IMG/VR virus record: IMGVR_UViG_2923286960_000002
Length of the DNA stretch: 12,475 nt
Direction: 5' to 3' (one strand)
DNA from: a virus
Taxonomy: Duplodnaviria; Heunggongvirae; Uroviricota; Caudoviricetes
Shown here: positions 1,837-9,885 of the stretch, in pieces
How positions within the stretch are numbered: the first letter of the stretch is position 1
Layout of the letters: every line of letters begins with the position of its first letter
The notes under the pieces: model-generated
What the model was told of the DNA's origin: nothing
What the model saw: the letters and a program-made list of their open reading frames with translations, nothing else
Database searches by the model: none
Program-made: the position numbers and the translations under genes

Positions 1837-3129
1837 ATGAATACTGGATATTCTCCCGAACAAGGGCGGGGCTTCGTTCGTCCTGAAAAACAGAATCTGC
1901 AAAATTTTGCCGAAAGTATTCCGGTTATTTCCGGCCTTACTGGCGGGAGTGAAACCAATATTGTTAACGCCAGAGCGTTGCAGATGTTTGATGATAAAAA
2001 GGGAGTAAATTTAACTTACACCCCTGACGGCAATCAGAATATGAGCATTATCTCTGAGTCAGGTTTCTACAAACTAATAAAAACAAAAAGCGCCCCGTTG
2101 CCGGAGCGCCTTTGTGAACAATTAACCTACTGCGCAAAAAATGAATCTGAGCAGTGGGATTATATCAACCATGTGGAGAAGCGCCACAATTGCCGAATAA
2201 CGGGCAAAACAAAGGCCACCCGCTACGGTGGCCCCTCGACACAAGCTACACGTTATCCCCAACGCATGAGCATTGCCAACAATGCCACATTTGCGGCTGG
2301 TGGGCAATGCAATCAGTCTGGTTCAGTTCGTTGCCATACCTGCAATGAGCGCTTTTCCCTGTACTCTTTAAGGAATTGCTCAAGGGCAAAAGCACATGGC
2401 GCGAATCTTTCTGATTCATGCTCTATCTTTCTGCGCCGTCTTTTCCGTGCCGGTGATAATGTTTTGGTCAATTCTTTATCGGTCATTGTGTTGTCCTGCA
2501 TAGCAATGCGCCGTAATACCTTACACCACGGCGCTGATGGTGATTACTCTGGTTCTTTGGCCTTGCGGCGCTGGCGATATTCAACTTCTCGTTTTAATGC
2601 CGCAGTAACAAATTGCCCCGTACTTTCGCCAGGCATTTTTACCGCCTCAACATTGTTCATAACTTCATGCGGAACCCTTGCCGCAACGGTTTGTGATTTT
2701 GCGTTTACTGCTTTTGTCGCCATGTGGTGTACCCCTCATAAAAAACAAATGCAGTATGCAGGAAAAAAAATAAGTGTTCAACACTTGACGTGTTTAACAC
2801 CTGGGTTTAAATTGGTGTTCAACACCTTGTTGGCGCAAGGTGCAGAAACGACGAAACCCGGCAGTGCGCTAACACTAACCGGGCTTCTAACCACCAACGA
2901 TAGCGAAAGTATCGAGGTAGCTATGCGAAATCATACCACACACCCGCAAGGGCGGGACTCGCACAACCTGAATAAATACATCTGGCGTTTTATCGCCCTG
3001 AGCACGGCACAACCGCGCGTGATTACCATTGAGGCCACCAGCGAACAGGAAGCACGCCAGCAATCTCCGGCTGGCTGCGTGATGGTATTCGCTGCCCGTA
3101 TTCGTCAGGAGGTGTGCCATGTGCAATAA
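1837..3129 (+). CDS. Bro-N-like domain ORF (antirepressor-like N-terminus); 3' two-thirds of the frame doubtful, possibly degraded
   Basis: N-terminal ~110 aa resemble the Bro-N domain (NLQNF..., DDKKGV..TPDGNQNMSIISESGFYKLIKTKSAP). From about aa 120 the frame is Cys/Ser/Thr/Arg-rich and poor in Asp/Glu/Lys, and it is antisense to a well-supported RHH gene. No clear SD before the ATG. Confidence 0.4.
   Translation: MNTGYSPEQGRGFVRPEKQNLQNFAESIPVISGLTGGSETNIVNARALQMFDDKKGVNLTYTPDGNQNMSIISESGFYKLIKTKSAPLPERLCEQLTYCAKNESEQWDYINHVEKRHNCRITGKTKATRYGGPSTQATRYPQRMSIANNATFAAGGQCNQSGSVRCHTCNERFSLYSLRNCSRAKAHGANLSDSCSIFLRRLFRAGDNVLVNSLSVIVLSCIAMRRNTLHHGADGDYSGSLALRRWRYSTSRFNAAVTNCPVLSPGIFTASTLFITSCGTLAATVCDFAFTAFVAMWCTPHKKQMQYAGKKISVQHLTCLTPGFKLVFNTLLAQGAETTKPGSALTLTGLLTTNDSESIEVAMRNHTTHPQGRDSHNLNKYIWRFIALSTAQPRVITIEATSEQEARQQSPAGCVMVFAARIRQEVCHVQ
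2313..2501 (-). CDS. Hypothetical small basic protein, second gene of the leftward RHH operon
   Basis: 62 aa, highly charged (KRRRRK), 42 nt downstream of the RHH gene on the same strand; no recognisable fold by eye. Confidence 0.3.
   Translation of the reverse strand: MQDNTMTDKELTKTLSPARKRRRRKIEHESERFAPCAFALEQFLKEYREKRSLQVWQRTEPD
2544..2723 (-). CDS. Ribbon-helix-helix (Arc/CopG/MetJ-like) DNA-binding protein, putative island repressor
   Basis: 59 aa ORF below the track's length cutoff: MATKAVNAKSQTVAARVPHEVMNNVEAVKMPGESTGQFVTAALKREVEYRQRRKAKEPE. Beta-strand/helix/G-x-S-T helix pattern of RHH proteins; GAGGGG SD ~9 nt upstream of ATG; three palindromic operators immediately upstream. Confidence 0.55.
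   Translation of the reverse strand: MATKAVNAKSQTVAARVPHEVMNNVEAVKMPGESTGQFVTAALKREVEYRQRRKAKEPE
2753..2826. promoter_or_regulatory. Divergent promoter/operator switch with three GTGTT-N-AACAC palindromes
   Basis: O1 2774-2784 gtgttcaacac, O2 2790-2800 gtgtttaacac, O3 2815-2825 gtgttcaacac. Rightward promoter TTGACG (2785-2790), 17 nt spacer, TAAATT (2808-2813). Leftward promoter TTGAAC (complement of 2776-2781), 17 nt, CATACT (complement of 2753-2758). O1 overlaps the leftward -35, O2 lies in the rightward spacer, O3 just after the rightward -10. Confidence 0.55.
2923..3129 (+). CDS. Hypothetical 68 aa protein; alternative first gene of the rightward operon (same frame as the 3' end of the 1837 ORF)
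   Basis: ATG at 2923 preceded by GAGGT; lies ~100 nt downstream of the rightward promoter; its stop overlaps the next start (ATGTGCAATAA). Confidence 0.3.
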   Translation: MRNHTTHPQGRDSHNLNKYIWRFIALSTAQPRVITIEATSEQEARQQSPAGCVMVFAARIRQEVCHVQ

Positions 3130-3584: not shown

Positions 3585-3810
3585 TATTTACCACGAAACA
3601 ATAGACCGCGCATTTCTTGCACTTTCTCACAGTGAAAACATGCTGGAAATATTGCGCATATGGCTTGAAACACTTGGCGACAATGAACGCGACAAACAAA
3701 AATCAAGAATTGCCACGGCATTAATAACGCTTCTTGAGCCTGTAATAATGGAACTGCAAGAAATAGATCTATTGCACGACAGATATAAAGAACAGCACAC
3801 CGGAGAATAA
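3577..3810 (+). CDS. Hypothetical protein (77 aa)
   Basis: Start overlaps the stop of the upstream gene (ATGcgTGA at 3577-3584); protein-like composition. Confidence 0.5.
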   Translation: MRDIYHETIDRAFLALSHSENMLEILRIWLETLGDNERDKQKSRIATALITLLEPVIMELQEIDLLHDRYKEQHTGE

Positions 3811-3815
3811 AAATA

Positions 3816-4115
3816 ATGAAACTTAAATATTCTGGCTTAACTGCCAGTGGCAACACTCACCCTAAATTTACGCGCGGTGATATTTACCGCGACCAGTACG
3901 GCGGCACGGTAATGATTAAGGGCGTGGAAGAACGGCGTGTAACCTACCGCCGTGAAGGTTACGAATATGATTGCGTGATGCCTGTTTATCAGTTCCGGCG
4001 TGATTTTTCTCTGGTACAGACCGCGCCGCATAACGTGCCCACCAGCAACGCCAGGGCACGGGCAAACATCCAGAAGCTGAAAACCATGATTAACGGATTC
4101 AGGGGTAAAAAATGA
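3816..4115 (+). CDS. Hypothetical protein (99 aa), possibly a conserved enterobacterial prophage small protein
   Basis: Motif GDIYRDQYGGTVMIKGVEERRVTYRREGYEYDC; stop overlaps the start of the replication gene (ATGA at 4112-4115). Confidence 0.5.
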   Translation: MKLKYSGLTASGNTHPKFTRGDIYRDQYGGTVMIKGVEERRVTYRREGYEYDCVMPVYQFRRDFSLVQTAPHNVPTSNARARANIQKLKTMINGFRGKK

Positions 4116-5866
4116 AACTGGCACCGAACGTAAAACAGCAGTCACGCGGCATAAAACACAAAGGAACAGAAGTCATTATTTTTGCGGGTAGTGATGCCTG
4201 GGCACACGCGAAACAATGGCAGGAACATGATGCGCGTATGGCCGGAGATAATGAGCCTCCTGTGTGGCTTGGGGAGCAGCAGTTATCAGAACTGGATAAG
4301 CTGCAAATTGTGCCGGAAGGCAGAAAATCCGTGCGCATATTCAGGGCCGGATATCTTGCGCCAGTAATGATAAAGGCGATTGGCCAGAAGCTGGCGGCGG
4401 CAGGCGTACAGGATGCAAATTTTTACCCTGATGGTATGCACGGTCAGAAGGTGGAGAACTGGCGCGAATATCTGGCCCGTGAGCGCCAGAATCTTTCTGA
4501 TGGTCTGGTCATTGAGCTTCCGGTAAAGCAAAAGGCGCAACTTTCGCAGATGGCGGACAGTGAGCGCGCGCAGCTGCTTGCCGATCGCTTTGATGGCGTT
4601 TGCGTACATCCTGAAAGTGAAATCGTTCACGTATGGCGCGGCGGGGTATGGTGTCCGGTCAGCACAATGGAGCTTAGCCGCGAAATGGTGGCGATCTATT
4701 CAGAGCACAGGGCCACTTTCAGCAAGCGCGTAATCAATAACGCCGTGGAAGCGTTAAAAGTTATTGCCGAACCAATGGGCGAGCCGTCCGGCGATTTGCT
4801 GCCGTTCGCCAATGGTGCGCTTGACCTGAAAACGGGGGAATTTTCCCCGCACACGCCGGAGAACTGGATCACCACGCACAACGGCATTGAGTACACGCCA
4901 CCAGCACCCGGGGAGAACATCCGCGATAACGCGCCAAACTTTCATAAATGGCTTGAGCACGCAGCCGGAAAAGACCCGCGCAAGATGATGCGTATATGTG
5001 CCGCGCTGTACATGATTATGGCGAACCGGTACGACTGGCAGATGTTTATTGAGGCCACCGGAGACGGCGGGAGCGGTAAAAGTACATTCACACACATAGC
5101 CAGCCTTCTGGCAGGGAAACAGAACACGGTAAGCGCTGAAATGACATCGCTTGATGATGCTGGTGGACGTGCGCAGGTTGTCGGGAGTCGTCTTATCGTC
5201 CTGGCTGACCAGCCGAAATATACAGGCGAAGGAACGGGCATCAAGAAAATCACAGGCGGCGACCCCGTGGAAGTTAACCCGAAATATGAAAAGCGTTTCA
5301 CGGCGGTAATCAGGGCGGTGGTGCTGGCGACCAACAACAACCCGATGATATTCACCGAACGGGCCGGAGGTGTGGCACGTCGTCGCGTGATTTTCCGTTT
5401 CGACAATATCGTCAGTGAGGCCGACAAAGACAGGGAGCTACCGGAAAAGATTGCGGCTGAAATCCCTGTGATTATCCGCCGATTACTGGCGAACTTTTCC
5501 GCCCCTGAAAAGGCACGGGCTTTACTCATTGAACAGCGTGACGGTGATGAAGCACTGGCGATAAAGCAGCAAACGGATCCGGTTATTGAGTTTTGCCAGT
5601 TCCTGAATTTTCTGGAGGAAGCGCGCGGCCTGATGATGGGGGGCGGTGGCGATTCAGTGAAGTACACGACCAGGAACAGCCTTTACCGCGTCTATCTGGC
5701 GTTTATGGCATACGCAGGCAGGAGCAAACCGCTAAACGTAAATGACTTTGGCAAGGCTATGAAGCCAGCCGCGAAAGTTTACGGACATGAATATATTACG
5801 CGGAAAGTTAAGGGAGTAACGCAGACTAACGCAATAACAACAGACGATTGCGACGCGTTTTTATAA
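4112..5866 (+). CDS. Replication initiator/helicase, P4 alpha C-terminal-like (D5_N + SF3 helicase); PICI Pri-Rep-like
   Basis: 584 aa; Walker A GDGGSGKST near aa 315 followed by a hydrophobic strand ending LIVLAD; overall resemblance to the phage/plasmid primase P4-family C-terminal domain. No TOPRIM or AEP primase motif recognised by eye in the N-terminal 300 aa. Confidence 0.88.
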   Translation: MKLAPNVKQQSRGIKHKGTEVIIFAGSDAWAHAKQWQEHDARMAGDNEPPVWLGEQQLSELDKLQIVPEGRKSVRIFRAGYLAPVMIKAIGQKLAAAGVQDANFYPDGMHGQKVENWREYLARERQNLSDGLVIELPVKQKAQLSQMADSERAQLLADRFDGVCVHPESEIVHVWRGGVWCPVSTMELSREMVAIYSEHRATFSKRVINNAVEALKVIAEPMGEPSGDLLPFANGALDLKTGEFSPHTPENWITTHNGIEYTPPAPGENIRDNAPNFHKWLEHAAGKDPRKMMRICAALYMIMANRYDWQMFIEATGDGGSGKSTFTHIASLLAGKQNTVSAEMTSLDDAGGRAQVVGSRLIVLADQPKYTGEGTGIKKITGGDPVEVNPKYEKRFTAVIRAVVLATNNNPMIFTERAGGVARRRVIFRFDNIVSEADKDRELPEKIAAEIPVIIRRLLANFSAPEKARALLIEQRDGDEALAIKQQTDPVIEFCQFLNFLEEARGLMMGGGGDSVKYTTRNSLYRVYLAFMAYAGRSKPLNVNDFGKAMKPAAKVYGHEYITRKVKGVTQTNAITTDDCDAFL

Positions 5867-5880
5867 TTTTTTGCAATGGC

Positions 5881-6104
5881 TGTCTACCCTGTCTACCTGA
5901 GTAAAGAAAAATACATTTAATTCAGTATATTAACTTAGGTAGACAGCCTTTTTTCACTGTCTACCTACTATCTACCCTCTCTACCTGATTTTACCTGAAT
6001 CAGACAGGGAGGTAGATACGGGGTAGATAGTGGATAAAAGCACTCTACCCCGCTGAAAGCCGCGCCATTACTGGCATGAGAGCCAGTAAGGTAGATAAGG
6101 TAGA
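5881..6104. repeat. Replication origin: about 11 iterons with TCTACC core in both orientations flanking an AT-rich spacer
   Basis: tgTCTACCc (5883), tgTCTACCt (5893), GGTAGAca (5939), TCTACC (5960, 5971, 5980), GGTAGA (6011, 6022), TCTACC (6044), GGTAGA (6090, 6099); AT-rich 5905-5935. Directly downstream of the replication gene, as in SaPI/PICI origins. Confidence 0.75.
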
Positions 6105-6154
6105 CAAGGGGAGGCACAACTCAAAACTTTTTAAACGAGGGGGTAAAAATAAAA

Positions 6155-6412
6155 ATGCGCACATCAGGAAAACTTAATAATCAGAAGAAGCAGCATAACC
6201 GCGCCATTGACCTTACAGAGCACTGGCTGAGAGTGGCGATAAAAATCATCGACCGCAACACGGGGGAAGGATACGCGAAAGCACATCCCGACCTGATAAG
6301 CGCATTCATGACCACGGCGGCGGCAAACTTTGCCACGCTGACAGAACGGGAGATTGCCGAAGCGGAACAGGTAACAACCATCAACGTTAAAACCGGAGAG
6401 GTGGAATCATGA
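6155..6412 (+). CDS. Hypothetical protein (85 aa)
   Basis: Strong SD GAGGGGG upstream; stop overlaps the SSB-like start (ATGA at 6409-6412). Confidence 0.5.
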   Translation: MRTSGKLNNQKKQHNRAIDLTEHWLRVAIKIIDRNTGEGYAKAHPDLISAFMTTAAANFATLTEREIAEAEQVTTINVKTGEVES

Positions 6413-6831
6413 CAGCACAGATAGCAGCTTACGGGCGGCTGGTGGACGACCCGCAGGTAAAACAGACCAGCAAGGGCACACCAATGACGCTGGCACGTAT
6501 GGCGGTCCCCCTTCCGTGCAGCCAGGCAGATGACGGAACGGCGACGATGTGGTTATCCGTCCTGGCATTTGGCAGACAGGCCGAAGCACTGGAAAGGCAC
6601 CGCAAGGGTGAACTCCTGAGCGTGGCGGGTAACATGCAGATCAGCCAGTGGACTGGGCAGAACTGAGAAACGCGGCAGGGCTGGCAGGTTATCGCAGACA
6701 GTGTAATCAGTGCGCGAACGGCGCGACTGGGCGGCAAAAAAGGTCAACAGGGCCAGGCTACTGACGCGCTGAACAGGGCAAAACAACAGGCGGGGAATGA
6801 TGATCCGTACGGGGATAACATACCGTTTTAA
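6409..6831 (+). pseudogene. ssb: SSB-like OB-fold protein interrupted by a single in-frame TGA (6664-6666); nonsense mutation, readthrough or sequencing error
   Basis: N-terminal 85 aa align to the SSB OB fold (YGRLVDDPQVKQTSKG...WLSVLAFGRQAEALERHRKGELLSVAGNMQISQWTGQN). The same frame continues after the TGA for 54 codons and ends in the SSB acidic tip ...DDPYGDNIPF. The TGA sits where SSB has a conserved Gly codon. Confidence 0.7.
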
Positions 6832-9444: not shown

Positions 9445-9885
9445 ATGATTGATAAAGCTTGTTTTGTAAGTCAGCAGGAAATAGCTGAACATTTCAAGGT
9501 TAACAGAACCACTATTCGCGCATGGACCAAACAGGGGATGCCGTATCTTAATGCGGATCGCGGAAAGTCTGGCGGTTATCACATCGGGCATACATTGCTT
9601 TGGTCTTCAGGTAAAAGCCGTCTTGAGGCCATCAGATATCACGTAGAAACCAGTGTGCTGGAAAAAATTATGTTTGCCAGGCTGCTTTCATCTGAGCGTG
9701 ACGAGTACTCCAGTGAAGAAACAGAACATAGATTTGATGAAGGTTTACAGATTTACGGCTACTCACCGGAAGAAGTGAGCAAAGCGCGAAATAAAATGGC
9801 CGGCTTTCTGGCTGGGTGGCGTCATGCCGTAAGCGTTCGCCGTGCCAGCATGGAACAATCAGTCGTTACAGAACAGCAAAGTTAA
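9445..9885 (+). CDS. Nu1-like HTH protein: small terminase subunit or TerS-mimicking packaging redirector (Rpp-like)
   Basis: 146 aa; N-terminus FVSQQEIAEHFKVNRTTIRAWTKQGMPYL..GKSGGYHIGHTLLW resembles the lambda Nu1 winged-HTH DNA-binding domain (QLADIFGASIRTIQNWQEQGMPVL...); SD AAGGT upstream. Confidence 0.75.
   Translation: MIDKACFVSQQEIAEHFKVNRTTIRAWTKQGMPYLNADRGKSGGYHIGHTLLWSSGKSRLEAIRYHVETSVLEKIMFARLLSSERDEYSSEETEHRFDEGLQIYGYSPEEVSKARNKMAGFLAGWRHAVSVRRASMEQSVVTEQQS

Follow-up and report, generated by a model that had tools for sequence, protein, structure and literature searches.

Replication origin and initiator-helicase of an EcCICFT073-type chromosomal island in Escherichia coli

The 12,475-nt stretch analyzed here (the window; IMG/VR virus record IMGVR_UViG_2923286960_000002) contains, at positions 5881-6106, the replication origin of a phage-inducible chromosomal island (PICI) of the EcCICFT073 type, a replicon that has already been published. 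The origin (ori) is an array of short TCTACC repeats (iterons) that follows the gene rep. By homology, and with strong support, Rep can be assigned to the superfamily 3 (SF3) initiator-helicases of the type of phage P4 alpha and of PriRep5 from SaPI5, a Staphylococcus aureus pathogenicity island (SaPI). We consider it probable that, as a whole, this is the origin of an EcCICFT073-type PICI served by a self-loading initiator-helicase that is not itself a primase and relies on priming by the host. Because origin and initiator belong to a replicon that has been published and tested by experiment, they add nothing new in kind. The replicon is otherwise ordinary and known, and the modest question beyond it is the function of the N-terminal 135 residues of Rep (the N-domain), and hence the priming of the satellite.

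The origin and its iteron array

The window is a chromosomal island of E. coli that lies between roxA and phoQ, where strain CFT073 has its island too, and the 2.7-kb portion 3800-6500 of the window was 100% identical to strain NCTC86 and others. The likeness to EcCICFT073 extends over the chromosomal site, the gene order, Rep and the 11-iteron origin. Both islands carry, in this order, an integrase, an AlpA-like regulator, small open reading frames (ORFs), a DUF4222 gene, a gene annotated as "DNA primase family protein", the non-coding gap, an 85-aa gene, ssb, a lambda-E-like capsid gene and a D-like decoration protein gene. Window Rep was identical to CFT073 WP_000761835 at 578 of 584 residues, and the origin gap was 99% identical with 11 of 11 hexamers unchanged. 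On the other hand, ssb of the window has a nonsense codon, and the window carries an extra 430-aa Ant/repressor-like ORF. The genes by which PICIs are recognized were found in one orientation (int, 1-1230; the AlpA-like ORF, 1596-1784, phrog_2790; rep, 4112-5866), and an ori with sets of iterons on both sides of an AT-rich stretch was found directly after the 3′ end of rep. The origin was present in 563 of 5426 complete E. coli genomes.

EcCICFT073 is a model Gram-negative PICI, for which capsid and decoration genes are mentioned and replication function has been shown experimentally (PMC6092414). Fillol-Salom et al. 2018 (ISME J; PMC6092414) placed the EcCICFT073 rep and ori region in a temperature-sensitive plasmid and obtained colonies of DH5alpha at the restrictive temperature. 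Deletion of rep gave no colonies, deletion of ori gave significantly fewer, and no helper infection was required. The cloning test proposed in a preliminary description of the window has thus been published on an essentially identical rep and ori. Autonomous replication by rep and ori is established for this 99%-identical allele; for the window allele, with its ssb pseudogene, it may hold as well.

An exact search for TCTACC on both strands found 14 copies in the 12.5-kb window, 11 of them within 5883-6104. Shuffled windows contained 2.63 ± 1.63 copies in the whole 12.5 kb, and 0 of 200 shuffles reached 14. The array begins 17 nt past the rep stop codon, inside a 288-bp non-coding gap (5867-6154) that no ORF of at least 50 aa overlaps. 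Its elements are as follows.

5881-6106, no strand: ori with 11 iterons in the palindromic order >><>>><<><< (exact search, inverted repeats, identity to CFT073)
5883-5897, + strand: iterons 1-2, direct, at 5883-5888 and 5892-5897 (exact search)
5898-5937, no strand: AT-rich spacer, 17% G+C against 49% for the window
5938-5943, − strand: iteron 3, inverted (exact search)
5960-5985, + strand: iterons 4-6, direct, starting at 5960, 5971 and 5980 (exact search)
6002-6007, − strand: degenerate twelfth site AGACAG, mirroring iteron 6 (inverted-repeat and layout analysis)
6011-6027, − strand: iterons 7-8, inverted, starting at 6011 and 6022 (exact search)
6044-6049, + strand: iteron 9, direct (exact search)
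6054-6075, no strand: conserved non-iteron block TGAAAGCCGCGCCATTACTGGC in the right spacer, kept in 7 of 7 aligned E. coli/Shigella alleles
6090-6104, − strand: iterons 10-11, inverted, starting at 6090 and 6099 (exact search)

Six iterons lie on the + strand and five on the − strand. With flanks, their consensus is yT(G/A)TCTACC(y), giving a site of 8-9 bp. The whole array is an imperfect palindrome centered at 5993/5994, with start-to-start gaps of 9, 46, 22, 11, 9, 31, 11, 22, 46 and 9. It is built from two inverted repeats, 5938-5976 with 6011-6049 and 5881-5898 with 6089-6106. The preliminary description had reported about 11 TCTACC/GGTAGA iterons around an AT-rich segment right after rep. 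Their number and place were borne out, but the flanking is uneven, with two iterons to the left of the spacer and nine to its right. SaPI origins are recognized by at least two iterons on each side of an AT-rich region, in opposite directions, and here such sites were found at 5883 and 5892 (+) on the left and at 5938 (−) plus eight more on the right. By analogy, the AT-rich spacer 5898-5937 is presumed to be the DNA-unwinding element.

The identity to the EcCICFT073 origin and a P4-like layout uphold the satellite-type iteron origin that had been proposed. In the orientation of alpha, the type-1 repeats of P4 ori read >><>>> with gaps of 10, 43, 22, 11 and 10 and an AT-rich spacer after the first pair. 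The left half of the window array repeats this string with gaps of 9, 46, 22, 11 and 9, and the right half mirrors the left. The AT-rich spacer, 43-46 bp, occupies the same place in both, and the octamer iterons are related (TGTCTACC in the window, TGTTCACC in P4). In both an iteron cluster lies directly 3′ of the gene; in P4 this cluster is crr. While P4 ori and crr are 4.5 kb apart, the window holds two mirror-image ori-type modules in one 226-bp palindrome, so that its origin amounts to a P4-ori module fused with its own mirror image. In the P4 genome, crr (4291-4590) is needed in cis for replication and sits directly 3′ of alpha, the position of the PICI origin after rep. The PICI palindrome may combine the functions of P4 ori and crr. 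In SaPIs, too, the origin directly follows the 3′ end of rep, and iterons of either orientation surround an AT-rich stretch, as in the window (PMC9371898), though host phylum and iteron sequences differ.

Among E. coli alleles with origins 72-77% identical overall, iteron columns were 88.6% identical and other columns 59.3%. The full string >><>>><<><< was also found in loci L004 and L023, which use TCTACC, and in L009, which uses TTCACC. Loci L008, L012 and L010 showed close variants of it, with one or two sites absent at zero mismatches, and relatives using TTCACC or GTTCAC had the same string or near variants. Layout and sites are therefore constrained, whereas the sequence of the site varies with the protein, which is the behavior of an initiator-binding array. 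The 22-bp block TGAAAGCCGCGCCATTACTGGC is G+C-rich and mirrors the AT-rich spacer in position; identity in the remaining spacer DNA is about 59%.

Several other candidate elements were rejected. A hairpin, TTACTGGC/GCCAGTAA (6068-6089), was dismissed as a structural element because its second arm is lost in diverged E. coli alleles, its conserved part being only the left part within block 6054-6075, and as a terminator because no T-run follows it. Two near-consensus DnaA boxes at mirror positions (5950-5958 and 6029-6037) were also set aside: boxes with one mismatch occur in the window at chance level (32 seen, 25 expected), the left one is absent from CFT073, and neither is conserved in the origins of relatives. 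An Rfam scan of the window matched no RNA family.

Domains of Rep and recognition of the iterons

The domains assigned to Rep, all on the + strand, are listed below.

4112-5866: rep ("pri-rep"), 584 aa, initiator-helicase of the island (Pfam D5_N, DUF5906, Pox_D5; NCBIfam TIGR01613)
4112-4516: N-domain, aa 1-135, alpha/beta, at the position of a primase domain, no function assigned
4568-4957: D5_N collar domain, aa 153-282 (Pfam PF08706, E 1e-15)
5057-5362: SF3 ATPase core, aa 316-417 (DUF5906, Pfam PF19263)
5060-5086: Walker A motif GDGGSGKST, aa 317-325
5570-5839: C-terminal winged-helix origin-binding domain, aa 487-576 (Pox_D5, aa 487-575; PDB 1ka8)

The Walker A and D5_N-like features noted earlier are thus real, and the part without assignment shrinks from the 300 N-terminal residues mentioned then to only about 140. 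Rep aa 141-573 aligned with P4 alpha aa 324-756 at 41% identity over 434 aa (E 2e-111), the D5_N domain, SF3 helicase and winged-helix origin-binding domain being common to both proteins. Rep aa 488-576 matched PDB 1ka8, the origin-binding winged-helix domain of P4 alpha (E 1.1e-6). Rep aa 194-432 matched PDB 7ola/7om0 (E 2.8e-15), which the PDB table calls only "DNA primase" and which we take to be the SaPI5 PriRep5 cryo-EM entries of Qiao et al. 2022. PriRep5 is a self-loading SF3 initiator-helicase with an N-terminal collar domain, an ATPase tier and an iteron-reading winged-helix C-terminal domain, as in the window. It differs in having about 320 N-terminal residues, the authors' putative primase, where the window has only the 135-aa N-domain (PMC9371898). 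A homologue search with the whole protein returned only matches at least 99% identical.

In order to locate the iteron specificity, natural swaps were compared in four diverged alleles of E. coli and in 16 full-length relatives outside this species; the relatives' loci were found with an 8-sequence N-domain alignment. Most of them carry 7-12 copies of a short repeat within 400 bp past the rep stop, and the DUF927-type loci L005 and L017 showed only weak repeats. The repeats, with the helicase type that accompanies them, were as follows.

TCTACC: D5_N type, window, L004 and L011
GTAGACA: D5_N type, L020
GGTGAACA (P4 iteron TGTTCACC): D5_N type, L008, L009 and L012
GTGAACA: D5_N type, L010 and L016
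ATGAACAC: D5_N type, L014
TGAACCAAC, GTGGGTTA, TGGGATAA and TGGGACAA: DUF927 type, L013, L015, L007 and L018, respectively
TGCCGCA: AAA_25 (RepA-like) type, L006

The Rep proteins of L020 and L008 share 94% of their N-domain residues, 96% of D5_N and the whole of the ATPase core (aa 291-470, 100%). Their identity then falls to 84% over aa 471-550 and 53% over the last 34 aa (aa 551-584), and the two loci have different iterons. The converse case was L023, whose N-domain was 41%, middle 96% and C-domain 84% identical to the window, and which keeps eleven TCTACC sites in the same layout. Moreover, in the lineages with the P4 iteron the C-domain was 49-53% identical to the P4 origin-binding domain, against 41-44% in sister lineages with equally similar helicase bodies and 36% in the window. 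These comparisons place the iteron specificity in the C-terminal domain. By homology, the C-terminal winged helix can be identified, with strong support, as the counterpart of the P4 alpha origin-binding domain that recognizes yT(G/A)TCTACC, and the specificity probably sits towards the end of this domain. Judging by the natural allele swaps, specificity would be set by the last ~35-115 residues of Rep, which offers a ready-made design for engineering orthogonal rep/ori pairs.

Two other readings of the array and of the N-domain are set against these data. The preliminary description had proposed that the N-terminus might bind the origin, and a domain of no assigned function with a near-neutral to basic pI (8.0) could be imagined to read the TCTACC iterons, either as the sole origin-binding domain or as an additional one. 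We regard this as very improbable. The same iterons and layout go with the L023 N-domain despite its divergence, the same iterons go with the L004 N-domain, which is 70% identical, different iterons go with the nearly identical N-domains of L020 and L008, and the same N-domain family accompanies the unrelated origin repeats TGAACCAAC, GTGGGTTA, TGGGATAA and TGCCGCA. It is the C-terminal 90 aa, not the N-terminus, that are homologous to a solved origin-binding domain. Equally improbable is the view that the hexamers serve chiefly as an operator or promoter of the downstream operon, or as a packaging site, and not as an origin. The array does lie in the 288-bp gap ahead of the next genes (start 6155), and initiators often autoregulate through their iterons. 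However, plasmid replication is impaired when the region is deleted from the 99%-identical EcCICFT073, the sites are laid out as in P4 ori, and the repeat type tracks the Rep C-domain across lineages. Promoter-like and terminator-like sites were about as frequent as expected by chance (1 found; 0.8 and 0.6 expected).

Two groups of loci deserve separate mention. Within 400 bp after rep, the islands L008, L009 and L012 (Kluyvera, Raoultella and Pluralibacter) carry the exact P4 iteron TGTTCACC in the layout >><>>><<><<, complete in L009 and with sites absent in L008 and L012, and their proteins have the N-domain in place of the P4 primase. In L011 (Escherichia ruysiae), the 330 bp after rep contain the TCTACC core in a different layout, <<>><<><<. 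The C-domain of its Rep is 38% identical, so the core may have arisen or been kept independently.

The N-terminal domain and the source of primers

The first 323 residues of P4 alpha contain a zinc ribbon (Zn_Ribbon_Prim PF08273, aa 30-66) and a Toprim primase domain (Toprim_3 PF13362, aa 210-299), whereas the window Rep begins with an unrelated 135-aa domain. The earlier statement that a primase domain could not be recognized was confirmed by domain searches. Pfam gave no primase domain and no match at all on the first 140 aa even at E≤5, and NCBIfam and PDB sequence searches found no primase domain in Rep. The RRM-like core of AEP/Prim-Pol primases likewise had no Pfam, NCBIfam or PDB match in Rep, and the N-domain profile gave only noise against PDB sequences (Cas2, E 0.11). 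Kinship between the N-domain family and the P4 alpha N-terminus was rejected (hhalign probability 1%). The name "primase" comes from NCBIfam TIGR01613, "phage/plasmid primase, P4 family", which matches Rep aa 229-496 and is a model covering the helicase part. PHROG families matched by the N-domain are labeled "DNA primase", a label that probably derives from the same family annotation.

The gene called "pri" or "primase" in PICI papers thus has no recognizable primase domain in the EcCICFT073 lineage. SatelliteFinder-style marker sets use the same name. In the PICI literature examined, the gene is called primase and no domain analysis was found. According to Rice and co-workers, helicases with D5_N or "primase C_term" annotations are commonly mis-annotated as primases (PMC10061031); in the literature examined on Gram-negative PICIs, where the gene is called pri/primase, this point was not found applied. 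A similar case is SCCmec Cch2 and its kin, D5_N helicases that lack a primase domain but are routinely labeled as primases in error (Bebel et al. 2020; PMC10061031). SCCmec elements differ from the window island in encoding an unconventional primase of their own, an A-family polymerase with an SSB-like partner (PMC10061031). Pfam, PHROG and PADLOC scans of the island found no other primase-like or polymerase-like gene, only ssb, which belongs to the single-stranded DNA-binding protein (SSB) family.

The distribution of the N-domain was narrow. A search with aa 1-157 of 1.8 billion cluster representatives found only 80 at E≤0.001, nearly all with the match starting at or near the N-terminus. 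Carriers were Escherichia, Shigella, Klebsiella, Serratia and Citrobacter, to which the fetched loci add Erwinia, Pantoea, Kluyvera and others. With more distant members in Mannheimia, the range is confined to Enterobacterales and Pasteurellaceae. The N-domain precedes four helicase modules: D5_N/SF3, DUF927, AAA_25 ("helicase RepA family") and VapE. Among the E. coli alleles (L004 and L022-L025), N-domains were 41-96% identical and the rest of Rep 84-99%, with a sharp junction at about aa 140. In L004 and L023, much of aa 1-140 was 10-60% identical to the window, and identity jumped to 95-100% at about aa 141. This mosaic junction indicates that the N-domain is exchanged by recombination as a cassette. 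A small, taxonomically narrow, recombining cassette attached to four helicase families suggests that it meets a need common to all of them. In one representative, P0176 (310 aa), an N-domain fragment (~aa 42-103) was fused with an HK97-type capsid domain in a single predicted ORF; the probable cause is an artefact of assembly or frameshift, or else rearrangement of the island.

An AlphaFold2 model of the N-domain, built with 24 homologues, was confident, with a predicted local distance difference test score (pLDDT) of 86.5 and a predicted template modeling score (pTM) of 0.77. It shows a 135-aa, doubly wound domain of alternating beta strands and alpha helices, followed by a disordered linker (aa 139-146). 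Foldseek found no significant match to the model in the PDB and, in BFVD, one uncharacterized phage protein (E 1.8e-4). A Toprim-like fold is a lead, not a result. There is no cysteine in Rep aa 1-152, so a zinc ribbon is impossible in the N-domain. In our reading of the strand order, the positions of the Toprim motifs EGxxD and DxD are occupied in the 24-sequence family by FAG(s)DAW and R(I/V)(Y/F)xAG. No invariant acidic residue was found in the 24 sequences where DnaG and Toprim proteins have the conserved Glu (end of strand 1) and DxD (after strand 3). Residues that are invariant or nearly so are mostly A, G, P, L and I; among charged residues, only E20 and E115 come close to invariance. 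Metazoan Twinkle, with its inactive primase-like N-terminus, is a comparable case; its helicase class is SF4, and the likeness is a weak structural match for which homology is not claimed.

From these features, we propose the following course of replication. By analogy with P4, SaPI and viral SF3 systems, Rep hexamers would assemble on the two mirror halves of the origin, melt the 17% G+C spacer 5898-5937 and then unwind the DNA in the 3′→5′ direction. SaPI Reps bind and melt their origin independently of ATP and translocate on the leading strand (Qiao et al. 2022, PMC9371898). Rep itself would be no primase, the zinc ribbon and Toprim domain of P4 alpha having been replaced by a cysteine-free 135-aa domain without conserved catalytic acids, and the N-domain would be an exchangeable module without catalytic activity, acting for example as an adaptor, as a collar or as an ssDNA-binding tier. 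Primers would be supplied by the host, most likely by DnaG that gains access to the unwound, SSB-coated DNA via the C-terminal tail of SSB or via a PriA/DnaB primosome. The SSB tail binds both DnaG and PriA. We infer priming by host DnaG from the absence of a primase. Of the two sources named in the preliminary description, host or helper, the host is thus the most plausible. The helper is unlikely because the plasmid assay worked without helper infection and because lambdoid helpers are not known to have a primase of their own and depend on host DnaG.

Several points weigh against this proposal. The N-domain occupies the exact position at which a primase is fused in P4 alpha, SaPI5 PriRep5 and T7 gp4, and its fusion to four helicase families is the pattern expected of a primase module. 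DH5alpha has a defective phi80 prophage, so the published assay is not strictly phage-gene-free. A non-primase N-domain is deduced from sequence and modeling. Delivery of DnaG to a 3′→5′ SF3 helicase is a hypothetical step, and the double-hexamer assembly and melting of the AT-rich spacer are carried over from P4, SaPI and viral SF3 helicases.

Given these points, we also considered that the N-domain might be an active primase of an unrecognized, very reduced type, perhaps derived from Toprim, which would make Rep a true primase-helicase. It would then be a minimal, cysteine-free primase without the usual acidic motifs, a swappable cassette among four helicase classes in Enterobacterales and Pasteurellaceae satellites. 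Replacement of the P4 alpha zinc ribbon and Toprim domain at the same junction would fit, as would the invariable N-terminal position in front of D5_N/SF3, DUF927, RepA-like AAA_25 and VapE helicases, and the fact that rep and ori suffice for a replicon in E. coli. On the other hand, the zinc-binding residues are absent, FAGsDAW and R(I/V)(Y/F)xAG stand at the Toprim motif positions among conserved residues of mostly small or aliphatic type, and neither hidden Markov models, PDB sequences and hhalign nor the Foldseek comparison with the PDB linked the domain to any primase. In addition, 135 aa are far below the size of any known primase catalytic unit. We therefore consider an active primase unlikely. 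In a weaker version, the N-domain could be a dedicated adaptor that brings host DnaG to helicases unable to bind DnaG as DnaB does. With the non-primase Rep that we prefer, the primer source of a satellite with a 3′→5′ SF3 helicase in E. coli becomes an easily testable question.

Neighboring genes

The genes next to rep and ori, all on the + strand, were annotated as follows.

3816-4115: DUF4222 gene (Pfam PF13973), whose stop overlaps the rep start (ATGA, 4112-4115)
6155-6412: conserved 85-aa gene just past ori, overlapping the ssb start (phrog_1231)
6409-6831: island ssb pseudogene (Pfam SSB) with an in-frame TGA at 6664-6666

Of 21 related loci, 14 have a DUF4222 homologue immediately before rep, with any helicase type; as it was found in only these 14, it was rejected as an obligate partner of the N-domain. 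The 85-aa gene was found in CFT073 and in every fetched allele. The ssb translation reads GQN*ETRQG where CFT073 has GQNGETRQG, and the NCTC86 annotation gives it as an internal stop/pseudogene. The in-frame TGA cuts the predicted oligonucleotide-binding (OB) fold and removes the C-terminal tail ...DDPYGDNIPF, which resembles the protein-interaction tip of E. coli SSB.

The 430-aa ORF (1837-3129) has an Ant/Bro-like segment near its N-terminus, and its C-terminus matches the phage "transcriptional repressor" phrog_6196 (E 2.5e-55). NCTC86 has a truncated BRO-N pseudogene at this place, and CFT073 lacks the region. PADLOC gave no defense-system match for Rep or for this ORF. A 146-aa ORF (9445-9885) has a weak N-terminal helix-turn-helix of the small-terminase/Nu1 type (phrog_57, E 3.6e-8; Pfam Phage_Nu1, E 0.026), and we presume that it may be the packaging-redirection protein of EcCICFT073.

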